The notes under the pieces: model-generated
Databases searched by the model: none
What the model was told of the DNA's origin: nothing
What the model saw: only the letters and a program-made list of their open reading frames with translations
Position numbers and translations under genes: made by a program
In this document: in pieces, positions 4,870 to 57,107 of the stretch
Layout: each line of letters opens with the position of its first letter
Numbering within the stretch: the first letter of the stretch is position 1
Assembly (NCBI GenBank): GCA_043813075.1
Contig: JBDRLL010000003.1
Coordinates: 54,606-118,605 of the forward strand
Source of the DNA: Candidatus Altiarchaeota archaeon
Lineage (GTDB): Archaea > Altiarchaeota > Altiarchaeia > IMC4 > SCGC-AAA252-I15
Length of the DNA stretch: 64,000 bases
Direction of reading: 5' to 3'

Positions 4870-6132
4870 CTATTTCCCGAACTTTTTTAGCGCCTTCCTC
4901 AGCTCCTCGTGGTCTCTCGCGTAATCCTCTAGGGACACTCCCTCAAGCACCGCGTCAACCGCCTGCCGCATGCTCTTCGCCCCAGCAACCGTCCCATCCG
5001 GGTGGCCGTGAACGCCGCCGCCGGCCTGTATGATGACGTCCTTGCCCATGAAGTCCATCAAAGGCGGGACTATCCCCGCATGCATGCCGCCGCTGGAGAC
5101 AGGGAACACCGGCTTCATGCCATACCACTTCTGGGGCAGCACAAACTCGTCCATCCTAACGTCATCCTCCACTATGGCGTCGCGTATGGCCATAACCTCC
5201 CTCATGGGGCCCTCCATCTTGCCGACTGCAGTGCCGATGTGAAGCTGGTCGACCCCAATCATCCGGTATATCTTAGCCAACGCGAGCATCGTTATCCCAT
5301 GACTCTTGTTCCTGGTCAACGCGGCATGCATTGCCCTGTGGGCGTGCAAGACCAGGCCTATCTCATGCATCCTAACGGTCTGGACCGCGCTGAAACCAAG
5401 AGTCACCACGTCTATCATCGCGTAACGGCCGCCATGGTCCTTTATGAACTCCATGCGGCGTATCATCTCACTGGTCTCCGCGGTGATGTTCGCCATATAC
5501 ACCTTCTGCTCGCCGGTCTCAGAGTAAGCCTTGTCACGCGCCTCAAGAGTCTTGATCACCCGGTCTTCGAAACGGTTGAATGGCTGGTCTGTCAGGTTCT
5601 CATCGTCCTTGACTATGTCGCAGCCGCCAAGCCAGCTCCCATAGGCGACGTCAGCGTGCTGCTGTGAATCCAACCCCACCTTCGGCTTCACTATAGTCCC
5701 CACAAGAGGACGCTCACTGACCTCCAACACTTCCCTTACGCCGGAAACCCCAAAGTGAGGGCCCTTATGCGCCTTCAGCACCGCCCTCGGAAAGCCTATG
5801 TCCAGCAGCCGGAGGTTTTCAATGGCCTTCATGCCGTAGATGTTTCCGGCGATGCTGCTCATAATCTGCGGTACGTTAGAGGGCTCGAACAACTCGAGTG
5901 GATACGCTATCTTGGCCAGCCCCTTCTTCTCATCCATCCAGTACACGTGGGGCTGCAGGTTCTCACGCACCTCATCCTTCATCGTCGACACGTCAGTCCA
6001 AGTGCCGATGCTTGACTCGCCGGTAACATGCTCGCACGCCTTCGGGAAAGAGATGCCCTTAGAGGGCTCGATGTAGAACAATGTCAGCATATCATTGTCG
6101 TCCGGCGCATACTTCAGGTCGATGTAGGACAT
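4870..6132 (-). CDS. rbcL: ribulose-1,5-bisphosphate carboxylase/oxygenase large subunit, archaeal form III
   Basis: 420 aa; GGCDIVKDDENLTDQPF, GGMHAGIVP, VIIQAGGGVHGHPDG and the active-site Lys region are typical of form III RuBisCO. Confidence 0.9.
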   Translation of the reverse strand: MSYIDLKYAPDDNDMLTLFYIEPSKGISFPKACEHVTGESSIGTWTDVSTMKDEVRENLQPHVYWMDEKKGLAKIAYPLELFEPSNVPQIMSSIAGNIYGMKAIENLRLLDIGFPRAVLKAHKGPHFGVSGVREVLEVSERPLVGTIVKPKVGLDSQQHADVAYGSWLGGCDIVKDDENLTDQPFNRFEDRVIKTLEARDKAYSETGEQKVYMANITAETSEMIRRMEFIKDHGGRYAMIDVVTLGFSAVQTVRMHEIGLVLHAHRAMHAALTRNKSHGITMLALAKIYRMIGVDQLHIGTAVGKMEGPMREVMAIRDAIVEDDVRMDEFVLPQKWYGMKPVFPVSSGGMHAGIVPPLMDFMGKDVIIQAGGGVHGHPDGTVAGAKSMRQAVDAVLEGVSLEDYARDHEELRKALKKFGK

Positions 6133-6187
6133 AAGAAGATAATCGTATGACGGCTATAAAAAAGGCAGCGCTCCCTAAAGTAATCAC

Positions 6188-7330
6188 ATGAGAGTGTCTT
6201 GTAGTGCCAGTCAAAAGCCAGACGAGATATTCAAGCATCTTACTGACGTGCAGCCTGCAAGCGAGGGTATGAAGGCTGAAAAGCGCGAATACACCACAAT
6301 ATACAGTTTTCCGAGCAGGAAGGATTACGGCAGAATAACAGTGTATAACCCTGTGTTCCATTCAGGGAACACTGAAATCCCATTCAATCTCTCCCGACTG
6401 GCAAGTCCTGAAGGCCGCGATTTCGTAGCCGCCCTAACAAGAGCACGGCTTGACACGCCATACGGGGGGCCGCAGGATGAACGTGACCTACCGTACTACA
6501 GGATATGGGAGAAACACCGGACTGACGAGTCGAGTTTTATATGTTCTGTTACCGGTTCTTTCAGAAGGCATGTTCTGGGAATGCCCTGTGTTATTAGGGG
6601 CGAGGAGTCCATGCTAGAAGCCAAGATCCCTGGGGAGGATGTTGAACACCGCCAGGTCAGTTTGAGAGACTTTGACTACACCATGAGAATGGTCAACAGA
6701 TACGGTTTTAATGCCGGATTCATGGAACCCGTCATGAGCGTCTATTATCCTGATGCAGAATCCGAGTTGTATGGCGAACGTAGGAGGGAGCCGATGCTTG
6801 CGGTTTTTTTCCGCCATCATCCGAACAGGAGGCTGTACGATCACACCCACAACGAACCGGTTAGCAGAGGATATCTGCAGCACGTTGCAAAAAACTGCGG
6901 CATGTCAGTTGAAAACCTGGTTGAGGATGTCGCATGCAGCGTATTCGACATACTCGGGAAGATTCACGCAGAGGGTATACTAATCCAGGGGGAAGCCTTC
7001 CTCTGGAATTACATCCTAACTGAGAAGGGGAAGACAATGTATGTGCCAGACTTCGACCAGTCAAGGGAGATTGAATACCCTGAGGAATACCAGCGACTTG
7101 GGGGGACAGAAGTCGCAGACATGACGCTACACACGATGAGACACATTATAGAGCCCAACATACTAGACCCTGCAAAGCGTACCGCGATAATAACCAAGTG
7201 CCTTAAGAATTATGCAGACACTATGAGGAGGTATAATGCAGGATTATGCGAAACAGGGCCTATACCACCTCCTCCTGAAGGCGAGCGTGAATTCGACGTG
7301 AAATCCATTGTTGGAGAGGGCATACGATAA
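6188..7330 (+). CDS. uncharacterised protein with protein-kinase-like (PKL) fold C-terminal region
   Basis: HAEGILIQGEAFLWNYIL...MYVPDFDQS resembles the catalytic-loop/DFG-like segment of atypical kinases (RIO/Kdo/APH-like). Otherwise novel. Confidence 0.4.
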   Translation: MRVSCSASQKPDEIFKHLTDVQPASEGMKAEKREYTTIYSFPSRKDYGRITVYNPVFHSGNTEIPFNLSRLASPEGRDFVAALTRARLDTPYGGPQDERDLPYYRIWEKHRTDESSFICSVTGSFRRHVLGMPCVIRGEESMLEAKIPGEDVEHRQVSLRDFDYTMRMVNRYGFNAGFMEPVMSVYYPDAESELYGERRREPMLAVFFRHHPNRRLYDHTHNEPVSRGYLQHVAKNCGMSVENLVEDVACSVFDILGKIHAEGILIQGEAFLWNYILTEKGKTMYVPDFDQSREIEYPEEYQRLGGTEVADMTLHTMRHIIEPNILDPAKRTAIITKCLKNYADTMRRYNAGLCETGPIPPPPEGEREFDVKSIVGEGIR

Positions 7331-10349: not shown

Positions 10350-11390
10350 ATGCCCTTAAAACCAGTATTCAGCATCCTGATACCGACTTCCGGAAGGCCG
10401 GAACACCTTAGGGGGTGCGTTGAATCCATTTTCAATGGCGGACACCGGGATTTGGAAGTTCTGGTCCTCGTCAACGAATCCTGCTGGAAGAGCGTGGACT
10501 ACCTTAGGAAGGCTTCCGGGGGTTACACTGGCCTTAAGTATTTTGTGGTTAAGGAGAGGCTGAGCCATGGCGCCGCGAGGAACCGGCTGGTGGACAAGTC
10601 TAGCGGGGATCTGCTGTACTTTATCGACGACGACGTCGTGCAATACGGGAATGCCCTAACCATCCTGGAGGATAAGTTCAGGGAGTATCCATGGGCTGAC
10701 GTCATCGGCGGCCCGAACCTGACTCCAGAATCGTCTAGCAGGCTCCAGAAGTATTTCGGATTCTTCTTTGAATCCTATTTCGGGAGCTCTGGGATGAGGT
10801 ACAGGTATAAGCCGATTGGGTGCGATGTTGAAGCCGATGAGAAGAAGCTGATACTCTGCAACCTGGCGTTCAGGTCGCGAGTCTTCAATGAGATGGGGCT
10901 AAGATTCAATGAGGAGATACCTTCAAACGAGGAGAACATACTCCTGGAGCAGCTCAAGTCAAAGGGGGGTAGGATGCTGTACGTCCCCTCACTTAGGGTC
11001 TACCATCACCGGAGGGATTCGCTCATAGGATTCTGCAGGCAGCTGTTCAAGTACGGGAGGGGTAGGGCCCAGAGTATCGCCCACAATCCGAGAACATTCG
11101 ACCCGGTCTTCATCCTGCCATCAGCATTATTGGCATACATCATTATCTCATTGCCAGCGTCAGGCATCCTCTTCCGAATGCCCTTGGCGGCATACCTCCT
11201 GGCAGACGTTGCCGCTTCACTAATAAAGTCTGTTGGGGAGCGTGACCTGACCGCTGTTCCCGCGCTGATGGTAATCTTCCCGCTGGGACACTTGTCCTAT
11301 GGGATGGGATTCATCTTCCAGTTGGTGAAGACCGCCTTATCGTGGAAAGCAATACATTCAGGAGGGTATGGGGGGCGTCGTCAGAGGTAG
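10350..11390 (+). CDS. family 2 glycosyltransferase with C-terminal TM helices
   Basis: FSILIPTSGRPEHL, LEVLVLVNES and YFIDDDVV (DxD) are typical GT2; hydrophobic C-terminal third. Confidence 0.7.
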   Translation: MPLKPVFSILIPTSGRPEHLRGCVESIFNGGHRDLEVLVLVNESCWKSVDYLRKASGGYTGLKYFVVKERLSHGAARNRLVDKSSGDLLYFIDDDVVQYGNALTILEDKFREYPWADVIGGPNLTPESSSRLQKYFGFFFESYFGSSGMRYRYKPIGCDVEADEKKLILCNLAFRSRVFNEMGLRFNEEIPSNEENILLEQLKSKGGRMLYVPSLRVYHHRRDSLIGFCRQLFKYGRGRAQSIAHNPRTFDPVFILPSALLAYIIISLPASGILFRMPLAAYLLADVAASLIKSVGERDLTAVPALMVIFPLGHLSYGMGFIFQLVKTALSWKAIHSGGYGGRRQR

Positions 11391-12274
11391 CCTGTTAATT
11401 GATCGAAAAGCGTACTGCTGCCTGCGCCAACAAGCTGGACCTTAACCGTAGGGTCCACTGGAAGGGGTTGGGGTATAGAGTCGCTGCCATAGGAGACTTC
11501 AGCGCCAGACTCCCTGCACAAGAGCAGTCCTGCAGCAACGTCATACGTCTTGGGGGTTGCCGCCAGCCCAGCGCCAGCCCTCAAGTCCACAATCAAGTCC
11601 GTCTTCCCTGAAGCGAGGAAGGCCAGTTCGAGTGCAGTCGAGCCATAGCATTTCAGCCATACGTCGTCAACTCCGCTGCCAGTCGCCTCCGCCAGCCTGA
11701 GCATCAAGTCATCGTGTATTCCGTACGCGCCCGCAAAATGACAGCCAATCGAGAGCACCGCATGGGTAAGATCCTTTTTGCCTGAGGCTGTGATTGTCTT
11801 CCCATTAGATCTAGCGGCATCGCCTGCGACAACCGTGTAGTCGTCATCGGTATCTAGGCGGGAGACAACACCTACGGCGACATCTTCCAGCGTCTCAGCT
11901 CCAGGGGGGAACACCGCTATGGAACATGAATATGCTGGAAGCCCGCGCCTCGCATTCCTCGAGCCATCCAACGGGTCTATCAGGTATATCGCCTCGGTGC
12001 CGCCGCCATAATGGAGTATGCCCTGATCCTCAGTCATCACTGTGGCGTTAATCCCATTGTCCTTGAAGAAGCCACCTACCGCCTCCTCCACAGGCACGTC
12101 TATCTCGAACGTCGTGTCGCCCGTCTTGCTGACCGGATGCTGCCGGTCCTCATAGGACCCGACGAGAGGCTCCACCGTCTCCCTGATGATTCCGGACAGT
12201 TCCAGCGAATTCCTCAGGTGATTCCCAACGTCAAAGTCCACTGTAAAAGTATGGTACTGTCTTTTAATCAACAT
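11381..12274 (-). CDS. suhB: inositol monophosphatase / fructose-1,6-bisphosphatase family protein
   Basis: LIDPLDGSRNARRGLP (DPIDGT motif) and a WDxAAG-like region; archaeal IMPase/FBPase family. Confidence 0.75.
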   Translation of the reverse strand: MLIKRQYHTFTVDFDVGNHLRNSLELSGIIRETVEPLVGSYEDRQHPVSKTGDTTFEIDVPVEEAVGGFFKDNGINATVMTEDQGILHYGGGTEAIYLIDPLDGSRNARRGLPAYSCSIAVFPPGAETLEDVAVGVVSRLDTDDDYTVVAGDAARSNGKTITASGKKDLTHAVLSIGCHFAGAYGIHDDLMLRLAEATGSGVDDVWLKCYGSTALELAFLASGKTDLIVDLRAGAGLAATPKTYDVAAGLLLCRESGAEVSYGSDSIPQPLPVDPTVKVQLVGAGSSTLFDQLTGYL

Positions 12275-15230: not shown

Positions 15231-16208
15231 ATGGATGAAAACAGGATATTGACGATAACTGCCGTAATACTGCTGAATTTAGCGGTATTTGCCTCGGCAG
15301 CCCGCGTTGGTATTGTAGTGGATGATGGTGTGGGGGGAGTGGAAACGAAGTGCAGGGATTTCGATGAAGGAGCCACCGCCTATGACGTAATATCAGGTGC
15401 TGGTGGATTTGAGATCGAGGACTTTGGATGGGGTTATGGAGTGTGCTCGATAAACGGGCACGGATGCCCGGTCGGGAACTGCTTCTGCGACCCGGCATGG
15501 GACTTCTGGAACTTCCTGTCCAACAAAGGCAGCTGGAGCATGACTTCGGTCGGAGTCGGCGACCACCGGGTAGAGGACGGGGAGATCATAGGATTCAAGT
15601 GGGGGCAGTGGGGTGACAAGCCGGATGCGATAACGTTCGAGGAGGTGTGCCCGCCCATAAAGAAGGGGAGGACCATCATCCCCAACATAATAGGTTTCGC
15701 TGTGTTGGGCGAAGCCGTGGCAGACAAGCCGGTGGTAGTCAATATCACAGACAATCGTACTGGAGAACCAGTGAAGAACGCTAAGATCGAATTGTTCAGG
15801 GAAGGTGCAGGATGGATTGGAAGGCTCCTGCATGTGGAGGCGGACGAGAACGGGATTGCTAGGATAAACATTCCGGACGAAGGAGAGTACGGAGTCAGGA
15901 TAACGAGGTACGACTACCACCACAAGTACGACAGCATCGAAGTCAAGGAGACGACGACAACGACGACCAGCAGCACCACGACGACGATAGTGACGACGAC
16001 CACAACCACCACCAGCACCCTGAAACACTTCATAACAGGGGGGAGAGAGCATACGACGACAACAGTCAAGCCGACAACGACAATTAGGAAAAGCCCCGCC
16101 ATACTGGGTAATGCCATGGCACCGCCGACGACAAGACCAAGGCCGGTGAATAGTCAGGACAATGATGAAGGACTGATCGATAGCATAATCGGATGGCTGT
16201 TCGGGTAA
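15231..16208 (+). CDS. secreted DUF4430-like (transcobalamin/intrinsic-factor beta-like) protein with Thr/Ser-rich stalk and C-terminal anchor
   Basis: Signal peptide; W.F.SN....W...VGVGDH.VEDGEIIGFKWG fits the DUF4430 pattern seen in cobalamin-binding proteins next to ECF transporters; TTTTTTSSTTTT linker. Confidence 0.45.
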   Translation: MDENRILTITAVILLNLAVFASAARVGIVVDDGVGGVETKCRDFDEGATAYDVISGAGGFEIEDFGWGYGVCSINGHGCPVGNCFCDPAWDFWNFLSNKGSWSMTSVGVGDHRVEDGEIIGFKWGQWGDKPDAITFEEVCPPIKKGRTIIPNIIGFAVLGEAVADKPVVVNITDNRTGEPVKNAKIELFREGAGWIGRLLHVEADENGIARINIPDEGEYGVRITRYDYHHKYDSIEVKETTTTTTSSTTTTIVTTTTTTTSTLKHFITGGREHTTTTVKPTTTIRKSPAILGNAMAPPTTRPRPVNSQDNDEGLIDSIIGWLFG

Positions 16209-27700: not shown

Positions 27701-27744
27701 TTTCATTCCAGGTTTAATTAATTCGGTTCCATTGTTAATATCAT
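27701..27744. repeat. direct repeat copy 2 (duplicated nadM promoter/start fragment, now upstream of the herA-like gene)
   Basis: Same 34-nt core plus tttcattcca; includes a duplicated ATG AAA opening a 22-codon remnant ORF on the minus strand. Confidence 0.8.
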
Positions 27745-29257
27745 GGGTATCGGCCAAGTGATAGGCTCCACTACACTAAGGAGCTTTCGTTTTGTGATAA
27801 AGGAGGGTGAGGAGGGGAAGGTCAAGAGGGATGAGTTCGTCACAGTCAGGGAGTCTGTGACAGGCAACAGGATACTCGGCGTCGTCAAGGACATTGTGAC
27901 TTCAAACGAGCTACTGCCGGACGAGTTCGGCCGCGACCTCAGGCTCGCAGACATTATACTGAAGGAGGGTGAGTATCCCGTACCAATAGTCAAGGTGCTT
28001 GGGATACAGGGGAGGGATGGGCTGGAACTCCCACGCCATGGCATAAAGCCGGGTGCGGTGGTGGAGTTGGCTGAAGACGAGATGCTGAAGGAGATACTCC
28101 ATCAGGAGGGTGGCAGGAGTGCTTTGATAGGGACTTTGTCCACCAGGGAGACTGTGCCTGTGGAGGTTAACATAAACGAGCTCGTGTCCAGGCATTGCGC
28201 AGTCCTCGCGATGACTGGTGCGGGGAAAAGCTATACTGTCGGTGTTCTGATAGAGGAGATAATGAAGAAGAAAGGGTCTGTCTTAGTGTTCGACCTGCAT
28301 GGGGAGTTCATAAACGTGAGGATGAAGGACTCGGGGGTAAAGGTGTATGATGTGGAGGGTAAGGACATGATAAAAGTTAACGTGGACTCGCTTTCATCCG
28401 GGGACTACGTGAACCTAATGCCAGACCTGACGAACACGCAGAGAGACCTTCTGGACGAGGTCCTGAATCTCGCGGACAAGTTCTACGAGAAATACGACTT
28501 GAACACCATACTGGAAGTCCTCTCCATAATCTACGACACGAAGAAGGGCGAGGAGCCGGGGGAGATGATATTCAACAACAGGGAGATAACGACGATAACC
28601 AAGAAGGTTACGCTCCCCACGATAGGCGCGCTCATGAGGAGGATAAGGAGGCTCGACAGGATCGGCGTCTTCAGTGTGAAGGGGACTCCACTGAACGAGA
28701 TAGTCAGGGAGAACCAGCTGACGGTATTCAACCTGTCTGAGGCGGACGAGAAGGTTAGTGAAATCATAGTGGCCGCCATGCTGAGGAACATATTCGACGC
28801 AAGGAAAAAATTCATGAGAGGAGGGGGCGGAGAGGGCCTGCCGACCCCGACGTTCATAGTCATCGAGGAGGCGCACAACTTCGCTCCTAGAGTGGTCGAG
28901 GCGGACTACATACCGTCCAGGGGGATAATAAGGAAGATAGCGAGGGAGGGGAGGAAGTTCGGCGTGGGGTTGTGCGTTGTGAGCCAGAGGCCTAACAAAC
29001 TGGATTCAGACGTGCTTAGCCAGTGCAACACGCAGTTCATAATGAAGATGGTGAATCCCGTCGACCAGGAGTATATAAGGCAGAGCGTGGAATCTGTTAC
29101 GGAAGATATTGTGAGGGATTTACCGAGCCTTTCAAGGGGCGAGGCCATCATATCCGGCAGCGCCATAAACCTGTCGGTACCCGCTAGGATACGTGAGAGG
29201 GAGACGGCGGTCGGCGGTCAGGATATTGATATCGTAGGTGTGTGGAATGGCAATTGA
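27743..29257 (+). CDS. HerA-like (DUF87) ATPase
   Basis: Walker A AMTGAGKSYTVGVL, Walker B FIVIEEAHNF, and VVSQRPNKLDSDVLSQCNTQFI (HerA/FtsK-like arginine finger region). Confidence 0.75.
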   Translation: MGIGQVIGSTTLRSFRFVIKEGEEGKVKRDEFVTVRESVTGNRILGVVKDIVTSNELLPDEFGRDLRLADIILKEGEYPVPIVKVLGIQGRDGLELPRHGIKPGAVVELAEDEMLKEILHQEGGRSALIGTLSTRETVPVEVNINELVSRHCAVLAMTGAGKSYTVGVLIEEIMKKKGSVLVFDLHGEFINVRMKDSGVKVYDVEGKDMIKVNVDSLSSGDYVNLMPDLTNTQRDLLDEVLNLADKFYEKYDLNTILEVLSIIYDTKKGEEPGEMIFNNREITTITKKVTLPTIGALMRRIRRLDRIGVFSVKGTPLNEIVRENQLTVFNLSEADEKVSEIIVAAMLRNIFDARKKFMRGGGGEGLPTPTFIVIEEAHNFAPRVVEADYIPSRGIIRKIAREGRKFGVGLCVVSQRPNKLDSDVLSQCNTQFIMKMVNPVDQEYIRQSVESVTEDIVRDLPSLSRGEAIISGSAINLSVPARIRERETAVGGQDIDIVGVWNGN

Positions 29258-32431: not shown

Positions 32432-34687
32432 ATGTTTGTGGAACACCCGCTCGTGAGGAAGGATAAGCTGAGGCTCAGGAGGTATCAGGAGGCGGTGGTA
32501 GCCAGGGCCATAGACGAGAACACCCTGGTCGTGCTGCCGACAGGATTGGGCAAGACTATTGTCGCGGCGATGGTGGCGGCAGTACGGCTTGGGAAGTACC
32601 CGAACTCCAGGGTGCTTTTTGTCGCGCCCACTAAGCCGCTGGCAGTCCAGCACGAGAAGACGTTCAGGGACCTGCTGACTGTGGAGGAGACCACGGTACT
32701 AACCGGCCAAGTTAGTTCTGAAAAGAGGAGGGAGCTGTGGAACACCAGCAGGATAATATTCGCGACACCGCAGACAATACAGAACGACTTGTACAGGGGG
32801 TTGAAGCTGGATGACGTGTCGCTGATAATTTTTGACGAAGCCCACCGGGCTGTCGGGGACTACAGTTACGTTGGCATAGCAGGGGACTACGTGAAGCAGT
32901 CGCCCTACCCGCTCATACTGGGGCTGACCGCTTCACCCAGCTCGGAGCGGGAGAAGGTGGGGGAGATAAGGAAGAACCTTTTCATAAGGAACATAGAGGC
33001 CAAGACCGAGCACGACAGGGACGTGAAGCCTTACGTCCAGGATGTGAAGGTTGATTGGGTTAGGGTCGAGCTGCCGGAGGAGATAAAGGAGTTGAAGACC
33101 GTTCTTGAGGATGTTCTGAGGGAGCAGTTGAAGAACCTGAAGGAATACGGGTACCTTGAGAGCGCGCAGATACAGAAGGTCAACAAGAGGATGCTCTTGG
33201 GGATACAGCATGAGATAAGGAAGGAGATAACGGGGGGGATGGATTCTTACGGGCCGGCGTCGCTGGTGGCTTCGGCGATAAAAGTCAACCACGGGCTGGA
33301 GCTCCTTGAGACGCAGGGCGTTACCGCGCTACACGAGTACTTTAAGAGGATGTTCAGCCAGAAGACGAAGGCTGTTAGAAAGCTTGTTGGGGACCATCGG
33401 ATGATAAAGGCCTCATACACGGCGAAGAAGCTCATTGAGGAGGGTGTTGAACACCCCAAGCTGGACGAGCTCGTGAAGATAGTGACGAGACACAGGGACC
33501 AGAAGGTGCTGGTGTTCACACAGTACAGGGATTCGGTTGACAAGATAATAGAGCGGCTGAACGAGGCCGACATACTAGCGCACGAGTTCATAGGTCAGGC
33601 TGCGAGGGGCGTTAGCAAGGGGATGACGCAGAAGAAGCAGATAGACGTGTTGGAGAAGTTCAAGGAGGGCGCATACACTGCTTTGATAGCGACCTCGGTC
33701 GCTGAGGAGGGGTTGGACATCCCTAAGGTGGATGCCGTAGTCTTCTACGAGCCGGTGCCTTCGGAGATAAGGAGCATACAGAGGAGGGGTAGGACAGGCA
33801 GGAGTGCTGCGGGGAAGGTCTACGTGCTTATCGCGAAGGGGACGCGGGATGAGGGATACTATTGGGCTTCAGTGCACAAGGAACGGAGGATGGGGAATAT
33901 TGTCAGGGAGTTGAGGAGCGGGCTGGACAAGCAGCAGAGCCTCGAGGATTATGACGCTGGGGGGATTAGTGTGGAGGATAAGGTGGAGACGCCAGCGGCT
34001 TACGGGCAGCAGAGCATAGCCCAATACTCTTTCAGGGACTCTGATGAAGTCAGGATATTCGTGGATGTGAGGGAGCGGAACAGGAACATACTCGACCAGC
34101 TTAAGGAAAAGGCGGTCATAGAGGTGAGGCAGCTTCCGGTTGGAGACTATTTGCTGTCGGACAGGGTGTGTGTGGAGAGGAAGACTATGGAAGACTTCCT
34201 GCAATCGATTATAGACAAGAGGCTTATGCAACAGCTGACTGAGATGCGGCGGAACTTCATGATGCCTGTGCTCCTGGTGGAAGGGTGGAGCAACCCATAC
34301 TCTATGAGGGACATACACCCTAACGCCATAAGGGGCGTACTAGCGTCCATCGCAGTGGACTTCGAGGTGAGCATCATACCAAGCATGGATGAGGCGGACA
34401 CGGCCGGGATACTCTACGCGATGGCGAAGCGGGAGCAGGTGGATGAAAACAGGGTTGTGGGCTTGAGAGGAGAGCGCAAGCCGCTCACCCTGGAGGAGAG
34501 GCGCAGATACGTTGTGGAGTCGCTGCCAAACGTTTCCGCGGTACTGGCAGGCCGCCTGCTGGATGAATTCGGGAGTGTTGAGGGTATTATGACCGCGTCT
34601 GAGAGCGATTTGATGCGTGTTGAGGGGATAGGCGGGAAGAAAGCGGCTGAAATCAGGAATGTTGTGAAGAGCAAGCACGATAAATAG
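32432..34687 (+). CDS. hef: Hef helicase-nuclease (long form: SF2 helicase + ERCC4/XPF nuclease + HhH2)
   Basis: LVVLPTGLGKT (motif I), DEAHR (II), helicase C motifs (VATSVAEEGLDIP, QRRGRTGR), ERCC4 nuclease GDYLLSD..VERK, C-terminal tandem HhH. Confidence 0.85.
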   Translation: MFVEHPLVRKDKLRLRRYQEAVVARAIDENTLVVLPTGLGKTIVAAMVAAVRLGKYPNSRVLFVAPTKPLAVQHEKTFRDLLTVEETTVLTGQVSSEKRRELWNTSRIIFATPQTIQNDLYRGLKLDDVSLIIFDEAHRAVGDYSYVGIAGDYVKQSPYPLILGLTASPSSEREKVGEIRKNLFIRNIEAKTEHDRDVKPYVQDVKVDWVRVELPEEIKELKTVLEDVLREQLKNLKEYGYLESAQIQKVNKRMLLGIQHEIRKEITGGMDSYGPASLVASAIKVNHGLELLETQGVTALHEYFKRMFSQKTKAVRKLVGDHRMIKASYTAKKLIEEGVEHPKLDELVKIVTRHRDQKVLVFTQYRDSVDKIIERLNEADILAHEFIGQAARGVSKGMTQKKQIDVLEKFKEGAYTALIATSVAEEGLDIPKVDAVVFYEPVPSEIRSIQRRGRTGRSAAGKVYVLIAKGTRDEGYYWASVHKERRMGNIVRELRSGLDKQQSLEDYDAGGISVEDKVETPAAYGQQSIAQYSFRDSDEVRIFVDVRERNRNILDQLKEKAVIEVRQLPVGDYLLSDRVCVERKTMEDFLQSIIDKRLMQQLTEMRRNFMMPVLLVEGWSNPYSMRDIHPNAIRGVLASIAVDFEVSIIPSMDEADTAGILYAMAKREQVDENRVVGLRGERKPLTLEERRRYVVESLPNVSAVLAGRLLDEFGSVEGIMTASESDLMRVEGIGGKKAAEIRNVVKSKHDK

Positions 34688-34713: not shown

Positions 34714-37023
34714 ATGGACTCCGATGCTGAGAGAAGGCTTTTATGGCGGAAGATAGGGCAGAGGGAGAAGCAGAGGCGGAATAACATAGAGGAGATTAAG
34801 AAGATAATACACTCCGGCGACCCCACAGGCAAGAAGAACGCCAAGACTCTGCTGAGGCTTGTGCTGCATGGCGAGGGCATAAAGTCCAGTGAAGCCAGCA
34901 AGATGATAGGTGTGGGCAGGAACGTCATAGACCAGTGGGCTAGACTGCTGGAGGATAAAGGCCTTATAGTAGTGGACGCCCACGGACACCCTGACCCAAA
35001 GCTGATGCCAAGCCAGGAGATTCTGAATAAACTCAACAAATACAAGCAGGAGAAGCTGAACCTGACGCTCGGCGAGGAGATACTCTCCTATGAAAGCGCT
35101 CTGGAGAAGAAGAAGGAGGAGTTGACTAAGGAGCATGAGGAGAAGATAAAGCTGGGGGAGGATTTGGAGAAGATAAAGCTTCAGCTGGCTGAGAAGGAGG
35201 AGGAGCTGAAGAAGGAGCATAGGGAGCGTCTTGACCTGGAGAAGAGGATGGTGGAGATTGAGGGGGATGCTGCCGGCGAATACGATGAGAAGCTAAGGAT
35301 GCTTAGGGAGCAGTTGAACCGTGAGCGCACGGAGCGCATGAAATTCGAGACCTTGATGAAGGAAGAGCATGATAAGCTGCTTGCGGCTGAGGAGGAGAAG
35401 AGGAGGGCGTGCGCTAAGATGGAGGAGGAGCTTATGAAGCGTGAGGCTGAGATACTGGACAGGGAGAAGTCTCTTGAGGAATACGAGGAGCTTGACGCCA
35501 TCTTCGGTGATGACGTGGAAGATAAGAGGATAAGTGACGCGAAGAAGAGCATCGACACCATCAGGGAGAGGATTGGTAAGGTGGGTGAGAAGATTGCTGG
35601 AGTGGATGATGAGTTAGGGCAGGATATACGGAGCATATTCTCTGATGAGGAGGATTTAGCCAGGATACTTGGGGAAGAGCTTGCACTGCTGAAGAGGAGG
35701 ATGGCTGATCTGGAGTCAGCAGGGAAGGGCCTGAAAGCGGATGGTTCAGGAAAGCCGCCGGACGAGAAGCCACCCGCACCACCCACCCCGCCAAAGCCAC
35801 CGGAGCCCGCATTTGGTCTGGATGCGACTGCAACAGCATTATCTGACCGGACTCCGGAAAGTGTGGTTCCAAAAACAGGGAAGCTGAAGCCTCCAGCACC
35901 ACCGACACCGCCAACACCTCCAGGACCGCCTGAGCCAGTGGATGAGGGCAAGGCCGTGGCGGAGCTGAAGACAGAAGCCGTTGCAGAGAAGAGGGAGACT
36001 ATAAAACCAACAGCAACGCCTGCGGCAGCAAAACCAGATGCGCCCACACCAAGGCAAACCACACCCCCATCACAGACTACGCCATCAACAGCAGCATCAG
36101 AGCCGACGGCCGCACCACCGGCAAAAACAAAGGTAACCCCACAATCGCCGGCACCAACACAGGAAAAAACAACAATACAAAAGCCGCCAGTGATCACTAG
36201 AACGCATACTACAGCACAGACACATCCTACCACAACGCCCGCAGGGCAGGTGACTGCGCCGACAACGCAGGCAAGAACACCAATCACTCCGCCAACATCG
36301 CCGACACCAACACAGGAAAAACCAACAACCAGTCAGCCGTCACATATCAATCAAAAAACGCCGGCAGAGCAGGGTACACCAGATGAAGAGCCGAGTGGAA
36401 AACAAGCAGAGGGAAAAACGCCGGCAACACAGGCAGGACCTCCAGAACCTCCTGGAAAACCAGGAGGAAAAGAGGAGGCTCAAGCAAAGCCGGAAAAGCG
36501 TATAGCCAGCATGGAGGAGATGAGGAAGGCTCTTGAAGAGCCGGAAGAAGAGGGAGGAATCGTTTTAAAACCCCCCAGACCACCCTCCAATGAAGAAGAG
36601 CATCCCCATGAGATACCGCTGCCCCCTGAGACAGAGGAGAAAATGATGGAAGACGAGGAGCCGGTGCGCAGGATAGCGAGCATCGAGGAGATGCGGAAGA
36701 TATTCATAGATGATAAGGAAGACGAAAAAGCGAAGGAAGAGGAGAAAAAACTCGGAGTCGACATCGAAAACCTGATCGAACTGCTGGAAAACAAGAAGAT
36801 AATCAAGATTAATGATGCTTCTAAAGCCATAGGCGTGAACGATAACACCATAAGGATATGGGCCAACAGGCTGCAGGAGAAGGGTGTGGTGACGGTAAAG
36901 AAGCATTTGATGAGGGAGGATGAGATACTGCTGAACCCGTACGTGAACACCAAGGAGATAATAGAAGCGCATGAGGCAGAGCGGATAAGGGAAGAGATTA
37001 AAAAACTGCATAAGGAACAATAA
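34714..37023 (+). CDS. large coiled-coil protein with Pro/Thr-rich low-complexity core and HTH-like modules at both ends
   Basis: 769 aa; N-terminus (MIGVGRNVIDQWARLLEDKGLIVV) and C-terminus (AIGVNDNTIRIWANRLQEKGVVTV) share a motif; long E/K-rich heptad region; ~250 aa of PPxPTPP / TTPxQT repeats; internal repeat IAS(M/I)EEMRK. Confidence 0.5.
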   Translation: MDSDAERRLLWRKIGQREKQRRNNIEEIKKIIHSGDPTGKKNAKTLLRLVLHGEGIKSSEASKMIGVGRNVIDQWARLLEDKGLIVVDAHGHPDPKLMPSQEILNKLNKYKQEKLNLTLGEEILSYESALEKKKEELTKEHEEKIKLGEDLEKIKLQLAEKEEELKKEHRERLDLEKRMVEIEGDAAGEYDEKLRMLREQLNRERTERMKFETLMKEEHDKLLAAEEEKRRACAKMEEELMKREAEILDREKSLEEYEELDAIFGDDVEDKRISDAKKSIDTIRERIGKVGEKIAGVDDELGQDIRSIFSDEEDLARILGEELALLKRRMADLESAGKGLKADGSGKPPDEKPPAPPTPPKPPEPAFGLDATATALSDRTPESVVPKTGKLKPPAPPTPPTPPGPPEPVDEGKAVAELKTEAVAEKRETIKPTATPAAAKPDAPTPRQTTPPSQTTPSTAASEPTAAPPAKTKVTPQSPAPTQEKTTIQKPPVITRTHTTAQTHPTTTPAGQVTAPTTQARTPITPPTSPTPTQEKPTTSQPSHINQKTPAEQGTPDEEPSGKQAEGKTPATQAGPPEPPGKPGGKEEAQAKPEKRIASMEEMRKALEEPEEEGGIVLKPPRPPSNEEEHPHEIPLPPETEEKMMEDEEPVRRIASIEEMRKIFIDDKEDEKAKEEEKKLGVDIENLIELLENKKIIKINDASKAIGVNDNTIRIWANRLQEKGVVTVKKHLMREDEILLNPYVNTKEIIEAHEAERIREEIKKLHKEQ

Positions 37024-38385: not shown

Positions 38386-38772
38386 TTGCACGCCCACGGG
38401 CTGGAAGGCAGTGTCACACGGGCGGACGACAAGACTTTTGTCGTGGTCGTTGAGGGTGATGTTGAAGCCATAAGGAAGTTGTATAACGATGTTCACGCTG
38501 CGCTCGCTGACAACGTGAAGTTGAGTGATATCGTATTGTCAAAGACTGATCCGCCCAGGGATGTTGTGGAGGATCCGTTGAGGCAGGTTATTGATTCGGT
38601 GCAGAGGATGGAGCAGAGGATAATAAGGATAGAGAACAAGTTGAATGCGATACTCGCGCGTCTGGAGTCGGGAGGATTCAATGGGGGGAGTGATGAGTCC
38701 TATAGGGAGTATGGTTCTGGTGAGATTAGTGAAGAGTCGACGAACGCGTTTGCGAGCATGTTCGGGGACTGA
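38386..38772 (+). CDS. hypothetical protein (TTG start)
   Basis: 128-aa ORF starting at TTG; no motif recognised. Confidence 0.3.
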   Translation: MHAHGLEGSVTRADDKTFVVVVEGDVEAIRKLYNDVHAALADNVKLSDIVLSKTDPPRDVVEDPLRQVIDSVQRMEQRIIRIENKLNAILARLESGGFNGGSDESYREYGSGEISEESTNAFASMFGD

Positions 38773-53075: not shown

Positions 53076-54161
53076 TTAAAGCATGTCTGCAATGAAGAAG
53101 GGCGAGTAGGCGAGGAATTTGACCGCGAACCGGGGGTTGAAGGCTAGGCTGCTGATAACCCTTGACGCATAGTCCATGTCGCCCCCACTCTCAAGACTGC
53201 CCCTTACAGACTGGAGTAGGTCGAAGAGACGATCCAGACTCTTTGGTGAAAGCCCGGATAAGAAACGATGTATGAACAAGTGCATGAGAAGCTCGCGTCC
53301 GACCGCCCTCTTCCATTCGCGCTCGTATTGGTCGCTGAAAGCATATTCAGCAGCCAGACCGCCCATGACGATTCCGCCGCCGGTGGAAGCCTTCACCTGC
53401 CCTCCAGCATCCCCCACAGTCACCAGACCATCGTACTGCGTCCTCATCGACGGCTTGTGTATGGGTATTATCCCGTAGTGCTCGTCGAACACCGTGTCTT
53501 TTCTGAGGCGGCCTTCATCACGCAGTTTTTTCACGAATGCCTCCATGTAGGGCCTTGGATTTCTCTTGGTGCAGAGTCCGATGCGAGCACGGTCCCCGAT
53601 GGGTATGACCCATGCGAAGAAGTCAGGGACGGTGAAATACAATTCAGCGAAATCATTGTCGCATTCAACGTCCATCTCGTACTGCATTCCAATGAGGAAT
53701 TCGCTCGGCTTTTCAATGCCCATTGTGATGTGGAGTGAGTAGTCCGTTCCGGTGGCGAGGGCTATTCGGTCGGCCTTTATCTTGGAGCCGTCACTGGTGG
53801 ATATTGTGCCATTGACGTCAACCACGCGGCCGGTGGCCCGGACTGCTCCCGCATCAACTGCCTTGTTTAAGAGGTGGCCGTCAAAACCTATACGATCCAC
53901 CACACACGCCATCGTCTTGCCGCCATCAGCCTCGAACAGCACGCCCCCTGGAGAGTAGAACCTCGCGCCACGAATCCTGTTCAATATGAAATCCCCGTCA
54001 CTAACGCCCAGTCTCTCAAGTCCAGACTTGCTTATCAGGCCCGCACACTGGACCCTGCAGACGTCGCCGCCTATCAGCGCGACATCCATTGACTTGGCGG
54101 CGTGCGTTGCTGCGATACAACCTACGGGGCCTGCACCCACCACAGCAGCGTCATATTTCAT
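53076..54161 (-). CDS. ggr: digeranylgeranylglycerophospholipid (geranylgeranyl) reductase
   Basis: MKYDAAVVGAGPVGCIAA (FAD GxGxxG), ~360 aa, FixC/GGR family architecture. Confidence 0.85.
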   Translation of the reverse strand: MKYDAAVVGAGPVGCIAATHAAKSMDVALIGGDVCRVQCAGLISKSGLERLGVSDGDFILNRIRGARFYSPGGVLFEADGGKTMACVVDRIGFDGHLLNKAVDAGAVRATGRVVDVNGTISTSDGSKIKADRIALATGTDYSLHITMGIEKPSEFLIGMQYEMDVECDNDFAELYFTVPDFFAWVIPIGDRARIGLCTKRNPRPYMEAFVKKLRDEGRLRKDTVFDEHYGIIPIHKPSMRTQYDGLVTVGDAGGQVKASTGGGIVMGGLAAEYAFSDQYEREWKRAVGRELLMHLFIHRFLSGLSPKSLDRLFDLLQSVRGSLESGGDMDYASRVISSLAFNPRFAVKFLAYSPFFIADML

Positions 54162-54859
54162 TTCTTCTTGTGCTTAGAATAAGCCAGGAGCAGCCTATTG
54201 GTTGAAACCAGTATCTTATCCTTCCTATCCGTCTTGACTTCTATCAGCTTCTTACTCTCAAGCGACTCAGCCCACTCCATGACAGTGTTCTTGTCTGAGT
54301 CGAGGAGTATCGCCGCGTCAATCAGCTTGACCCTCTTCAGTCTTGCGACAGTCTTGGCGAGTTCCTTTGGTCCGGAAGACTTGGCCTGCGACTTTTCCCT
54401 CTTTTCGGGGGATGCTATGAGGTCGTCGAATGAATCCTCTGTTAGAGGGGTCACTATCCTCTGTGATACGGGCCTCTCGGGTTCAGTGGGCCTTGCCTTG
54501 GAGGCGTATTCCAGTTCGTCGGTTATCCTCTTGACGTCATCCTCAAGACGTTTCACGTCAGATTCTCTCCCAGCGAGCTTTGACGCCCATTCGGAGTCCT
54601 TGTTTCTAACTTCTTCACGCAATTGGCGTATGGTTTCGTTGGAGCGCATGAGGTGGTATGTTAGGACATCCATCTTCTCAGCGACTGCGATAGCGTATAG
54701 CTGGTCTGGGTGCGCTCCGGTGAGGGAACGCTGGTACCATGCGTCAAGCTCCTGCTCACGCTTCAAGAGCATTGCGTGTTCACGCACGTATTTTCTCTCA
54801 AGTTCCTCGTATCTCCTGCGTTCTTCCTTAAGCTGTTTTTCCAGGTCTTCCCCAGCCAT
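54158..54859 (-). CDS. coiled-coil protein with C-terminal HTH-like module
   Basis: 233 aa, E/K/R-rich heptads; C-terminal LIDAAILLDSDKNTVMEWAESLESKKLIEV resembles the terminal modules of the 34714-37023 protein. Confidence 0.45.
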   Translation of the reverse strand: MAGEDLEKQLKEERRRYEELERKYVREHAMLLKREQELDAWYQRSLTGAHPDQLYAIAVAEKMDVLTYHLMRSNETIRQLREEVRNKDSEWASKLAGRESDVKRLEDDVKRITDELEYASKARPTEPERPVSQRIVTPLTEDSFDDLIASPEKREKSQAKSSGPKELAKTVARLKRVKLIDAAILLDSDKNTVMEWAESLESKKLIEVKTDRKDKILVSTNRLLLAYSKHKKK

Positions 54860-56013: not shown

Positions 56014-56592
56014 ATGCTGGATAAACGCGACTGCAGGGCCATTAAGGCCGATTTGGACAAGCTCAGCAGGGGTAAGATAGAGGTCATGAAGCAGTCGAGG
56101 GAGATTGTTAAGGCGTCTAAGGAGCTGATATACAGCATACACCGGGGGGACGTTAAGGGATCCCGTGCGCTTCTCGCCAACATCCGGAAGAAGAGGGGGG
56201 TGCTTGATAGGATAGCCTCAACCCCGAGGCTTAGGGCATACCATCCGTACATCAATGGCGTGCAGGAGTATGTTGAGGCTGTATCATACCACTACGTGAT
56301 GACTAGTGGGCATATTCCATCCCGGAAAGACCTTGACGTGGACAGCGAGACGTATCTGATGGGCCTGTCAGACCTGACGGGCGAGCTTATGAGGAAGGGT
56401 GTCGACGACATGGTGAATGAGAGATACGCGCATGCGATAATGATGAGGGATGCGGTGGCCGAGATTTACGGTCTCATGCTCAGTCTTGACCTGGATGGTG
56501 GTGAGGCGCGGAGAAAGTCTGATGCGGTCAAGTGGAACCTGGCGAAGCTCGAGGATTTGGTGTACGATGCCAAGATAAGGGACAAGATATGA
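56014..56592 (+). CDS. translin-family protein
   Basis: All-helical 192 aa; GLSDLTGELMRKGV and the C-terminal LEDLVYDAKIRD resemble the translin/TRAX C-terminal signature (..VYDLSIRG). Confidence 0.5.
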   Translation: MLDKRDCRAIKADLDKLSRGKIEVMKQSREIVKASKELIYSIHRGDVKGSRALLANIRKKRGVLDRIASTPRLRAYHPYINGVQEYVEAVSYHYVMTSGHIPSRKDLDVDSETYLMGLSDLTGELMRKGVDDMVNERYAHAIMMRDAVAEIYGLMLSLDLDGGEARRKSDAVKWNLAKLEDLVYDAKIRDKI

Positions 56593-57107
56593 TGGAAGAC
56601 TTCAGGTATCATATGATGGCGGCTGCCGCGATTGCGGTGATACTTTTTCTCATAGGAGTGATGGTGGGGATGGGTTTGGGCTACTATGCCATCCCATCGG
56701 TGATGGATAGGATTGACCCGACTACGACAACCACTACCAGCAGCACGACGACCACTACTACAAGCACAACGACCACGAGCACAACGACATCCACGACTTC
56801 AACAACAACCACGACCATGGAGCCGTTCTACGTTTGCGCAGAGGAGTTGATGAGGGACGAGTTCGTTGAAACCGAATGCTACGGGAAGACTAGCGGAGAA
56901 TACTACAACAGCTCGATGAAGTCCACAGTATGGTATGTGTTGAACAACACCGCTATCGGAGACCACGCCTCCAACAGGGTGAAGGTGGTGGAAGACACCT
57001 GCTACTACACCCTCAAGAAGCTGAACTTCCAGGTTGGCGCGCTTTCCACATGCGTGATACCCCAGGAAAGGAACTGCACGCTGGACGCGGACCTCATTAC
57101 AGACTGA
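56589..57107 (+). CDS. membrane-anchored protein with Thr/Ser-rich stalk and Cys-containing extracellular domain
   Basis: Start set at the internal Met (ATGA overlap with the upstream stop); TM helix, TTTTTSSTTTTTTSTTTTS linker, 4-Cys globular domain. Confidence 0.45.
   Translation: MMEDFRYHMMAAAAIAVILFLIGVMVGMGLGYYAIPSVMDRIDPTTTTTTSSTTTTTTSTTTTSTTTSTTSTTTTTMEPFYVCAEELMRDEFVETECYGKTSGEYYNSSMKSTVWYVLNNTAIGDHASNRVKVVEDTCYYTLKKLNFQVGALSTCVIPQERNCTLDADLITD

Follow-up and report, generated by a model that had tools for sequence, protein, structure and literature searches.

Two winged-helix heads on a helical rod: an unnamed protein family of Altiarchaeota whose head recurs beside pilus-type ATPases

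Introduction

What is the role of a protein that carries a helix-turn-helix (HTH)-like module near either end and, between the two, a charged helical rod and a long run of proline and threonine? The question is posed by a gene on contig JBDRLL010000003.1 of a Candidatus Altiarchaeota archaeon (assembly GCA_043813075.1), in a stretch of 64,000 nucleotides (nt; contig positions 54,606 to 118,605) that is referred to throughout as the window. A preliminary description of this DNA had reported an open reading frame (ORF) of 769 amino acids (aa) at 34714–37023: the ORF stands in the ORF listing and its product is identical to an NCBI record, hypothetical protein ABIH11_00880 of Candidatus Altiarchaeota archaeon. 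Positions are window coordinates, and residue numbers refer to the 769-aa protein unless stated otherwise.

Altiarchaeota are uncultivated archaea with an unusual double-membrane envelope, unique surface filaments and a largely unknown cell biology. A conserved family of 300–770 aa with two docking heads, a rod and a tunable spacer would offer an entry point into how these organisms arrange their internal machines or their DNA. That the heads bind DNA is plausible, but a more informative result than the question of DNA binding is the recurrent link of the head to pilus-type ATPases and KaiC-like domains. Since the head recurs in type IV pilus-like loci and with DUF835, a scaffold associated with such machines is indicated no less strongly than a chromosome tether. 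Our tentative reading is of a bivalent, machine-associated cytoplasmic tether or scaffold, whose heads mainly dock proteins and whose basic N-terminal region may contact DNA or another acidic surface.

Architecture of the protein

From its N-terminus the protein comprises a basic leader helix, a winged-helix (wH) domain, a helical rod of ~240 aa, a disordered Pro/Thr/Ala-rich spacer of ~315 aa, a second wH domain and a C-terminal helix (Table 1). A full-length AlphaFold2 model based on 27 family members agrees with the layout of heads, rod and flexible stalk that had been proposed: the heads and the rod are modelled with confidence whereas the spacer is disordered, and it is because of this bimodal profile that the mean pLDDT (predicted local distance difference test) is 67.6. 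Charge is distributed asymmetrically along the chain (~86 kDa, overall isoelectric point (pI) 5.4), with a pI of 9.9 for residues 1–100, 4.9 for the rod, 5.4 for the spacer and 5.5 for the C-terminal region. The protein has neither a transmembrane segment nor a signal-like N-terminus (the maximum 19-residue Kyte-Doolittle hydropathy is 0.49) and is therefore taken to be cytoplasmic; a secreted or S-layer-type Pro/Thr stalk was considered and rejected, signal peptide and transmembrane segment both being absent.

Table 1. Features of the two-headed protein, its gene and related genes of the window.
Feature	Residues	Position	Strand	Evidence
Two-headed wH/rod/spacer gene		34714..37023	+	ORF listing, 769 aa, ATG start
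Basic leader helix	4-34	34723..34815	+	AlphaFold2 helix; conservation in family alignment
N-type wH head	42-114	34837..35055	+	module HMM 109 bits; AlphaFold2 H43-52, H58-65, H69-81, E85-88, E96-99
Alpha-helical rod	101-340	35014..35733	+	AlphaFold2; heptad periodicity test
Two family-wide rod motifs flanking break, ELKKEHRERLDLEKRM and LREQLNRERTERMKFETLMKE	164-179, 197-217	35203..35364	+	family alignments
Acidic motif EEYEELDAIFG, end of second long helix	255-265	35476..35508	+	motif search: P0001, P0002, P0009, P0022, P0038
Disordered spacer	341-656	35734..36681	+	pLDDT <50 almost throughout; composition
First motif copy, (K)RIASMEEMRK	597-605 (IASMEEMRK)	36502..36528	+	motif search
Linear motif HEIPLPPETEEKM	632-644	36607..36645	+	identical in 48%-identical orthologue P0002
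Second motif copy, (R)RIASIEEMRK	654-662 (IASIEEMRK)	36673..36699	+	starts pre-head helix 657-680 (AlphaFold2)
C-type wH head	683-759	36760..36990	+	module HMM 105 bits; AlphaFold2 domain model; wH at 684-740 in full-length model; Foldseek PDB matches
C-terminal helix	746-768	36949..37017	+	AlphaFold2; alignment; family consensus '..IR.EL.R.R(G)'
233-aa coiled-coil paralogue with third head (DNA 54161-54373)	163-233 of paralogue	54158..54859	-	module HMM 86 bits
Hef helicase/nuclease, upstream, 26 nt before gene		32432..34687	+	Pfam DEAD, Helicase_C, ERCC4, HhH; order kept in L001, L003, L005
Radical SAM + DUF5591 protein, downstream, 1 nt past stop codon		37025..38344	+	Pfam; order kept in L001, L003, L005, L011

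Winged-helix heads

Residues 44–110 align with residues ~680–740 at 40% identity over 67 aa (E 3e-10, single comparison), and the module at the C-terminus aligns in turn with the C-terminus of a 233-aa coiled-coil protein encoded elsewhere in the window (32% identity over 60 aa, E 1e-5). All six frames of the window were scanned with a hidden Markov model (HMM) of the module, which returned exactly three head copies, the next-best match having an E of ~1. The suspected duplication between the two ends of the protein is thus real, as is the third copy that had been placed at the end of the 233-aa protein.

An AlphaFold2 model of the C-terminal domain, based on 29 sequences, reached a pLDDT of 84.5 and has the topology H1-b1-H2-H3-b2-b3 followed by a long helix (in domain-model numbering: H9-19, E21-23, H24-31, H35-47, E51-54, E62-65); a wH pattern is seen for both heads in the full-length model. 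Foldseek places the C-domain model at a probability of 1.0 with many wH structures, the best being AspA (E 3.4e-4, template modelling (TM) score 0.61), with the MarR family, TFE-alpha and Sso10a-2 also among them, and a search with the full-length model again returned matches to the heads alone. What had been called HTH-like is therefore borne out as a wH fold: on these models both modules are true wH (HTH-type) domains with a hydrophobic core on H1, H2 and H3, and without a named family.

The absence of a named family, also anticipated in the preliminary description, holds for module and protein alike. No Pfam or NCBIfam model reaches its curated threshold for the 769-aa protein: the best sub-threshold matches are HTH_29 (at the N-head, 23.5 bits, cut-off 28.1), HTH_23 (21.2, cut-off 24.6), HTH_DeoR (18, cut-off 21) and MerR_1 in Pfam, and Lrs14 (16.6 bits, cut-off 90), FevR and the N-terminus of IS630 in NCBIfam. 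The same scans found no companion domain of a regulator, be it the RAM domain of Lrp/AsnC, the dimerisation helices of MarR or the sugar-binding domain of TrmB. Sequence searches of the PDB gave LrpA (E 0.005) and the CdvB wH (0.02) with a profile of five head copies; the CdvB wH (2xvc, E 0.0017) and an Lrs14-like protein (0.018) with an N-domain profile; and Lrp/AsnC proteins (1e-5 to 3e-5), then MarR and MntR, with a C-domain profile. Designed armadillo-repeat proteins, which headed the matches of the C-head profile, were set aside as repeat artefacts, and the whole protein retrieved coiled-coil noise alone, for example nucleoporin Nsp1.

The two head types differ in their wings. In the N-head the wing reads H-P-(N/D)-P-x-L-x-P (H-P-N-P-T-x-K-P across N-type heads of the family), while in C-type heads the base of the wing is basic (V-K-K) and its tip, in most relatives, is Gly-Gly. 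Column statistics identify conserved basic positions in both. Those of the N-head are K41, K44, K48, K57, K69, K82 and K98; in the C-head they lie at the base of the wing (K54 and K55, numbered by the C-domain alignment). By the same statistics the exposed face of the recognition helix is variable, even among syntenic orthologues; the position of D73, in the middle of the recognition helix of the N-head, is 62% acidic, and the start of H3 in the C-head 64–75%. The C-head is near-neutral (pI 6.8). Mean net charge is +2.5 and +2.0 for the heads of two-headed proteins and -2.8 for the heads encoded in pilus operons (described below), which contain a strongly conserved acidic helix, EEWAEFLEEEG.

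Among two-headed proteins mean identity is 30.6% for N-heads compared with N-heads and 27.2% for C-heads compared with C-heads; between N- and C-heads it is 19.8% within and 19.4% between proteins. On these values the duplication is old: it predates the family, and the two heads are distinct types that have been kept separately.

The head recurs beside type IV pilus-like motors

Four head-bearing proteins of other architectures lie in sufficiently long contigs for their surroundings to be counted. In all four loci the head-bearing gene is directly upstream of a T2SSE gene, which is followed by two T2SSF platform genes: P0116 (locus L008, from a metagenome), P0096 (L010, Nanoarchaeota), P0147 (L012, Altiarchaeota) and P0085 (L013, from a metagenome-assembled genome (MAG) labelled Nitrospiraceae). 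The gene for P0147 overlaps the T2SSE ATPase gene by 23 nt, and its cluster includes a KaiC-like ATPase gene. Because of these four loci, and because some heads are fused directly to T2SSE, we connect the head with machines of the type IV pilus kind. In both Nanoarchaeota and Altiarchaeota, type IV pilus-like operons open with a gene that encodes this head, an association not found in the papers searched; a review links uncharacterised cytoplasmic coiled-coil proteins to archaeal pilus loci, with no winged helix mentioned (PMC4858521).

A second association concerns DUF835, which the literature assigns to archaeal signalling proteins as an output domain, KaiC-like but inactive (PMC5847659). 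Of five Altiarchaeota loci, two (L005 7041-7964 and L011 819-1853) have a gene encoding the leader, an N-head, a short coil and DUF835 between Hef and the two-headed gene; the N-domain of its product is 39% identical to that of the window protein (E 4e-23). The two-headed protein beside the DUF835 gene in L005 has no leader helix, which suggests that this locus has undergone duplication or domain shuffling.

Further observations were made in the pilus-type loci. The cluster at L012 8001-14012 contains the head-DUF2226-head gene, the T2SSE ATPase, the KaiC-like ATPase (on the opposite strand) and the two T2SSF genes, and upstream of it are genes for several large products (644 to >900 aa), one with matches to beta-propeller domains. 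The surface filaments of Altiarchaeum have been proposed to form by a type IV pilus (T4P)-like process (PMC4460559), and for this reason the cluster may merit attention. In L008 a 466-aa protein (5533-6933, minus strand) with three HTH-like repeats and very acidic linkers between them is encoded beside the pilus-like operon; the suggestion that these wH-like repeats are further copies of the head is unsupported, as none matches the head profile at E<=1e-3. The same locus also encodes, between its ATPase and platform genes (10382-11899, plus strand), a 505-aa Glu/Pro/Lys-rich protein with low-complexity stretches. P0085 (L013, L014) is attributed to a 'Nitrospiraceae bacterium' MAG; its operon (one T2SSE and two T2SSF) resembles the archaeal loci, and the contig may therefore be mis-binned.

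Rod, spacer and short motifs

The rod is modelled as helices spanning residues 101–185, 191–264, 271–294 and 299–340, with a Gly-rich break at 186–190; pLDDT is mostly 77–89 and dips at the breaks between helices. The helices are 25–31% hydrophobic and 40–55% charged. Hydrophobic periodicity at 3.5 residues is very strong in 271–340 (0 of 2000 shuffles), modest in 191–264 (p=0.03) and weak in 101–185 (p=0.08): the term coiled coil is therefore well supported for the last third of the rod and plausible for the rest. Of the earlier claim of E/K/R heptads over residues ~100–300, the charged helical rod stands – and extends to residue 340 – but strong heptad periodicity is confined to its last part. 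Two motifs flank the break throughout the family, with the consensus 'EL..E[KR]K.R..LE..L' and 'L...L.RE[RH].ER.KLE..LR'. The window protein matches both, and E168, L201, E204 and R208 are nearly invariant.

The spacer contains the Pro/Thr low-complexity region of about 250 residues that had been noted: residues 345–595 (251 aa) are 24% P, 18% T and 12% A. At the DNA level it holds no tandem repeat of note, two short 9-bp arrays being all that was found. Its length is hypervariable in the family: both heads persist over a range from near zero (P0005, a protein of 342 aa) to above 300 residues. The motif IAS(M/I)EEMRK does occur twice, as first described; orthologue P0002 has the counterpart VVSMKEMRK and a weaker second copy. 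We speculate that HEIPLPPETEEKM and the two copies of RIAS(M/I)EEMRK are candidate partner-binding peptides.

A lineage-specific family with a stable gene order

The profile of five head copies was searched against 1.84 billion cluster representatives and matched 476 at E<=1e-3, 37 of them at E<=1e-10; the classes that follow were drawn from the best 150 of the 476. About 30 of these are two-headed proteins of 300–770 aa, which fall into a sub-group A with the leader helix, including the window protein, and a sub-group B without it. The leader that marks sub-group A carries a conserved 'E.WRRI...E..R' (W11, E18, R21). All named two-headed proteins are from Candidatus Altiarchaeota or Altiarchaeales (P0001, P0006, P0010, P0021 and the DUF2226-type P0147), and the long single-head P0096 is from a Nanoarchaeota MAG. 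Other classes combine a coiled coil with a C-terminal head (relatives of the 233-aa protein); a head, a coil and DUF835 (six representatives; P0025 matches Pfam DUF835 at 1.2e-28); two heads and a T2SSE ATPase (two representatives; P0029 matches Pfam T2SSE at 1.2e-23, P0027 similarly); a DUF2226 domain with a head at each end (two representatives); or an N-terminal head with an extended helical stretch (~385 aa in at least 24 proteins, ~900–1000 aa in some others). Many-repeat HTH proteins among the matches are probably generic.

These data define an unnamed, lineage-specific family, the two-headed form of which has so far been seen only in Altiarchaeota. Low-complexity candidates overwhelmed a homology search with the whole protein, which retrieved only the protein itself and one orthologue; scans of GTDB genomes with coiled-coil patterns and with the patterns HEIPLPPE and TEEKM found no relative, nor did one metagenome scan. 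No description of the head family was found in the literature searched on DUF2226, Altiarchaeota coiled coils and winged helix-turn-helix domains in pilus loci.

Orthologues range from 308 to 769 aa and all have both heads. P0002, from a JGI metagenome (621 aa, 48% identical), has its parts in the same order as the window protein: leader, N-head, rod motifs, EEYEEL(D/E), Pro-rich spacer, MKEMRK, HEIPLPPETEEKM, C-head and tail. Gene order on its contig also equals that of the window (HerA-like, chorismate mutase, prephenate dehydratase, Hef, two-headed gene, radical SAM + DUF5591, small protein). The two-headed gene stands between Hef and the radical SAM/DUF5591 gene in the window and in the loci of P0002, P0013, P0034 and P0009 (L001, L003, L005, L011): it is a single-copy gene in a stable syntenic position in five loci.

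Tether, DNA bridge or regulator

The head is fused to pilus-like motors or encoded beside them, and a structural tether is therefore likelier than an ordinary gene regulator. If the protein is a tether, then two rods would pair in a coiled coil, so that the resulting long dimer carries up to four heads. These would serve mainly as docking modules, the basic leader and N-head for an acidic surface, be it DNA or a partner protein, and the near-neutral C-head for another protein or a short peptide; the spacer would set a flexible reach. Such a molecule could connect or arrange assemblies of KaiC-like or pilus-type ATPases, perhaps relative to the nucleoid, and would not read specific DNA sequences. 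Sequence-specific reading of DNA is disfavoured because the exposed recognition helix is variable, D73 is mostly acidic, the heads of pilus operons are negatively charged, and the nearest solved sequence relative of the N-domain is the wH of CdvB, which binds protein.

Several observations weigh against the tether. A tblastn search of the window found no T2SSE, T2SSF or DUF835 gene, and the window gene adjoins no pilus, KaiC-like or DUF835 gene; the link to pili comes from distant relatives that share the head alone, at ~40–50 bits. Nearly all fold and profile relatives bind DNA: Lrp/AsnC (E 1e-5), MarR, MntR, AspA, Sso10a and TFE. The heads of two-headed proteins are mildly basic, and basic residues (all those named above except K57) are kept at positions of the N- and C-head that often contact the DNA backbone in such domains. 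Dimerisation, moreover, is predicted from a heptad signal that is strong only in residues 271–340.

A rival reading is a nucleoid-associated protein that bridges DNA or anchors the chromosome, in the manner of RacA or of a much enlarged Sso10a; we consider it possible and yet rather doubtful. Here both heads would bind DNA with little sequence preference, and the dimer together with the spacer would bridge segments or hold the chromosome in place. In its favour, the head is a canonical wH whose closest relatives are DNA binders, basic positions are conserved on H1, at the start of H3 and on the wing, the first 100 residues have a pI of 9.9, a pair of heads on each chain fits bridging, and in every locus the gene follows tightly behind that of the DNA repair helicase/nuclease Hef. 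Against it, the recognition helix has an exposed face that is unconserved and often acidic, the C-head is near-neutral (pI 6.8) and the C-terminal region acidic (pI 5.5), the heads of pilus operons are net acidic, and fusions of the head to pilus ATPases and to DUF835 occur. Neither prephenate dehydratase nor radical SAM/DUF5591, the other conserved neighbours, is linked to chromosome biology, for which reason the synteny with Hef may be mere inherited gene order.

That the protein is a conventional HTH transcription regulator, perhaps of neighbouring genes and with a rod that is only a dimerisation element, is improbable. It would account for the weak matches to HTH_29, HTH_DeoR, MerR_1, Lrs14 and FevR, and for Lrp/AsnC and MarR at the top of the C-head profile matches, but every family match is below its curated cut-off and neither a ligand-binding nor a known regulator dimerisation domain is present. 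No known regulator resembles a chain of 769 aa that combines two heads with a rod of 240 aa and a disordered spacer of 315 aa, and the residues of the recognition helix vary even among syntenic orthologues.

A low-complexity spacer (35.7–36.7 kb) is prone to assembly error, and its length here is taken from one MAG: could two or more genes have been joined by a frameshift or misassembly? This is very hard to sustain. Both heads occur within one ORF in separate assemblies (JGI, Logan, NCBI, ENA), motifs on either side of the spacer are kept in P0002, and the spacer has no notable DNA tandem repeat. The artefact, which the preliminary description had named as a possible refutation of its own reading, is effectively refuted by orthologues from independent assemblies that share both architecture and synteny.

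A mobile-element transposase, as JGI labels P0002, P0019 and P0025, can be dismissed: residues 49–181 weakly match the N-terminal HTH part of the IS630 model NF033545, in keeping with the JGI names, but the score is 18.6 bits against a cut-off of 100 with the HTH part alone aligned, no Pfam scan finds a DDE catalytic domain, and the gene is single-copy in fixed synteny in five loci. With similarity at the level of the HTH alone and no catalytic domain, the label on these three relatives is unsupported and their annotation should be corrected. Readings as a phage or a defence protein were likewise rejected, PHROG and PADLOC giving generic wH matches alone.

Likeness to known systems

By analogy, the family may work most like small or bacterial proteins that place a wH upon a coiled coil, namely Sso10a, RacA and, counting its C-terminal helix, AspA, and maybe like the scaffolds of type IV filament motors. 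The window protein itself belongs to none of the families compared: it reaches no curated threshold, lacks their companion domains and is not flanked by the gene partners that define them.

Sso10a and Sso10a-2, chromatin proteins of Sulfolobus, resemble it in having a wH head on a coiled-coil rod, with heads spaced apart (Foldseek 4hw0, E 1.9e-3, TM 0.53). The rod of Sso10a dimerises and its DNA binding is established, but it measures ~95 aa, each chain bears a single head, and both a disordered spacer and a second type of head are missing; identity is ~16%. RacA, the chromosome anchor of Bacillus subtilis, also combines an HTH-type head with a long coiled coil and is a physical tether, not a regulator; likeness is at the level of the HTH, with weak matches to 5i41 (E 0.03–0.5). 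RacA differs in being bacterial, with a single MerR-type head and no Pro/Thr spacer, and there is no significant sequence relationship. AspA, the centromere-binding protein of plasmid pNOB8, is the best Foldseek match of the C-head together with the C-terminal helix (5k5q, TM 0.61–0.63); it is ~90 aa long, 17% identical and encoded in a ParA/ParB partition cassette, whereas no such genes flank the window gene.

The wH of CdvB, the archaeal ESCRT-III protein, is the closest solved sequence relative of the N-domain profile, a marginal match in which the whole 59-aa chain is aligned. It is a protein-docking domain that binds the C-terminal peptide of CdvA. In CdvB, however, a Snf7/ESCRT-III core precedes the wH, and Pfam finds no Snf7 match here; the match of the C-head drops to E 0.048, and no Cdv genes were seen in the window. 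The kleisins ScpA and MukF have a wH domain at each end and a flexible middle, features shared with the window protein, while the long rod is not a kleisin feature. A kleisin was rejected: neither Pfam nor the PDB yields ScpA or MukF at E<=10, and no SMC-like ATPase is among the neighbours, which are Hef and radical SAM/DUF5591 instead.

The likeness to coiled-coil proteins of the arCOG07564 type, functionally scaffolds of the ArlX/ArlCDE type, is one of description: these are cytoplasmic and tied to T2SSE/T2SSF genes (PMC4858521), and head-bearing relatives hold that position in all four loci counted. They differ in that no wH head is described for them (PMC4858521), and in that the window gene lies outside a pilus locus.

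A broader, and unlikely, proposal is that head-bearing proteins form a previously undescribed cytoplasmic part of the type IV filament-like machines of Altiarchaeota and DPANN archaea, with an ArlX/ArlCDE-like role, and that the two-headed protein is a long tether coupling ATPase or KaiC-like assemblies to the nucleoid or to each other. If true, the two-headed tether might belong to the machinery behind the surface filaments of Altiarchaeota. The association of the head with pilus-like operons could name a missing cytoplasmic component of these widespread archaeal machines. Interest in the head would be greater if it were a dedicated docking module of archaeal type IV filament machines.

Neighbouring genes and other observations

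The downstream radical SAM-DUF5591 fusion is one protein of 439 aa, in the same position in every related locus; it may act in archaeosine or other tRNA-modification chemistry. It is followed in the window (38386-38772, plus strand) by the gene for a 128-aa protein with no Pfam match and an apparently helical C-terminal half. Small proteins of 142–165 aa are called after the radical-SAM gene in L001, L003, L005 and L011, and the L001 product resembles the 128-aa window protein by eye. A HerA-like ATPase (HAS barrel + DUF87; 27722-29254, plus strand) is encoded a few genes upstream of the two-headed gene, in a neighbourhood kept in L001, L003 and L005; no NurA, Mre11 or Rad50 partner was noticed near it. 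The gene for the 233-aa paralogue lies between purA and a GGR-like oxidoreductase gene, and its relative P0056 is found in an identical context.

Runs of Thr/Ser occur elsewhere in the window, in two proteins (15231-16208 and 56532-57107, both plus strand) in which such a run (TTTTTTSSTTTT...) follows a hydrophobic N-terminus. Both are probably secreted or exposed at the surface, carrying glycosylated stalks, and neither is related to the cytoplasmic Pro/Thr spacer.

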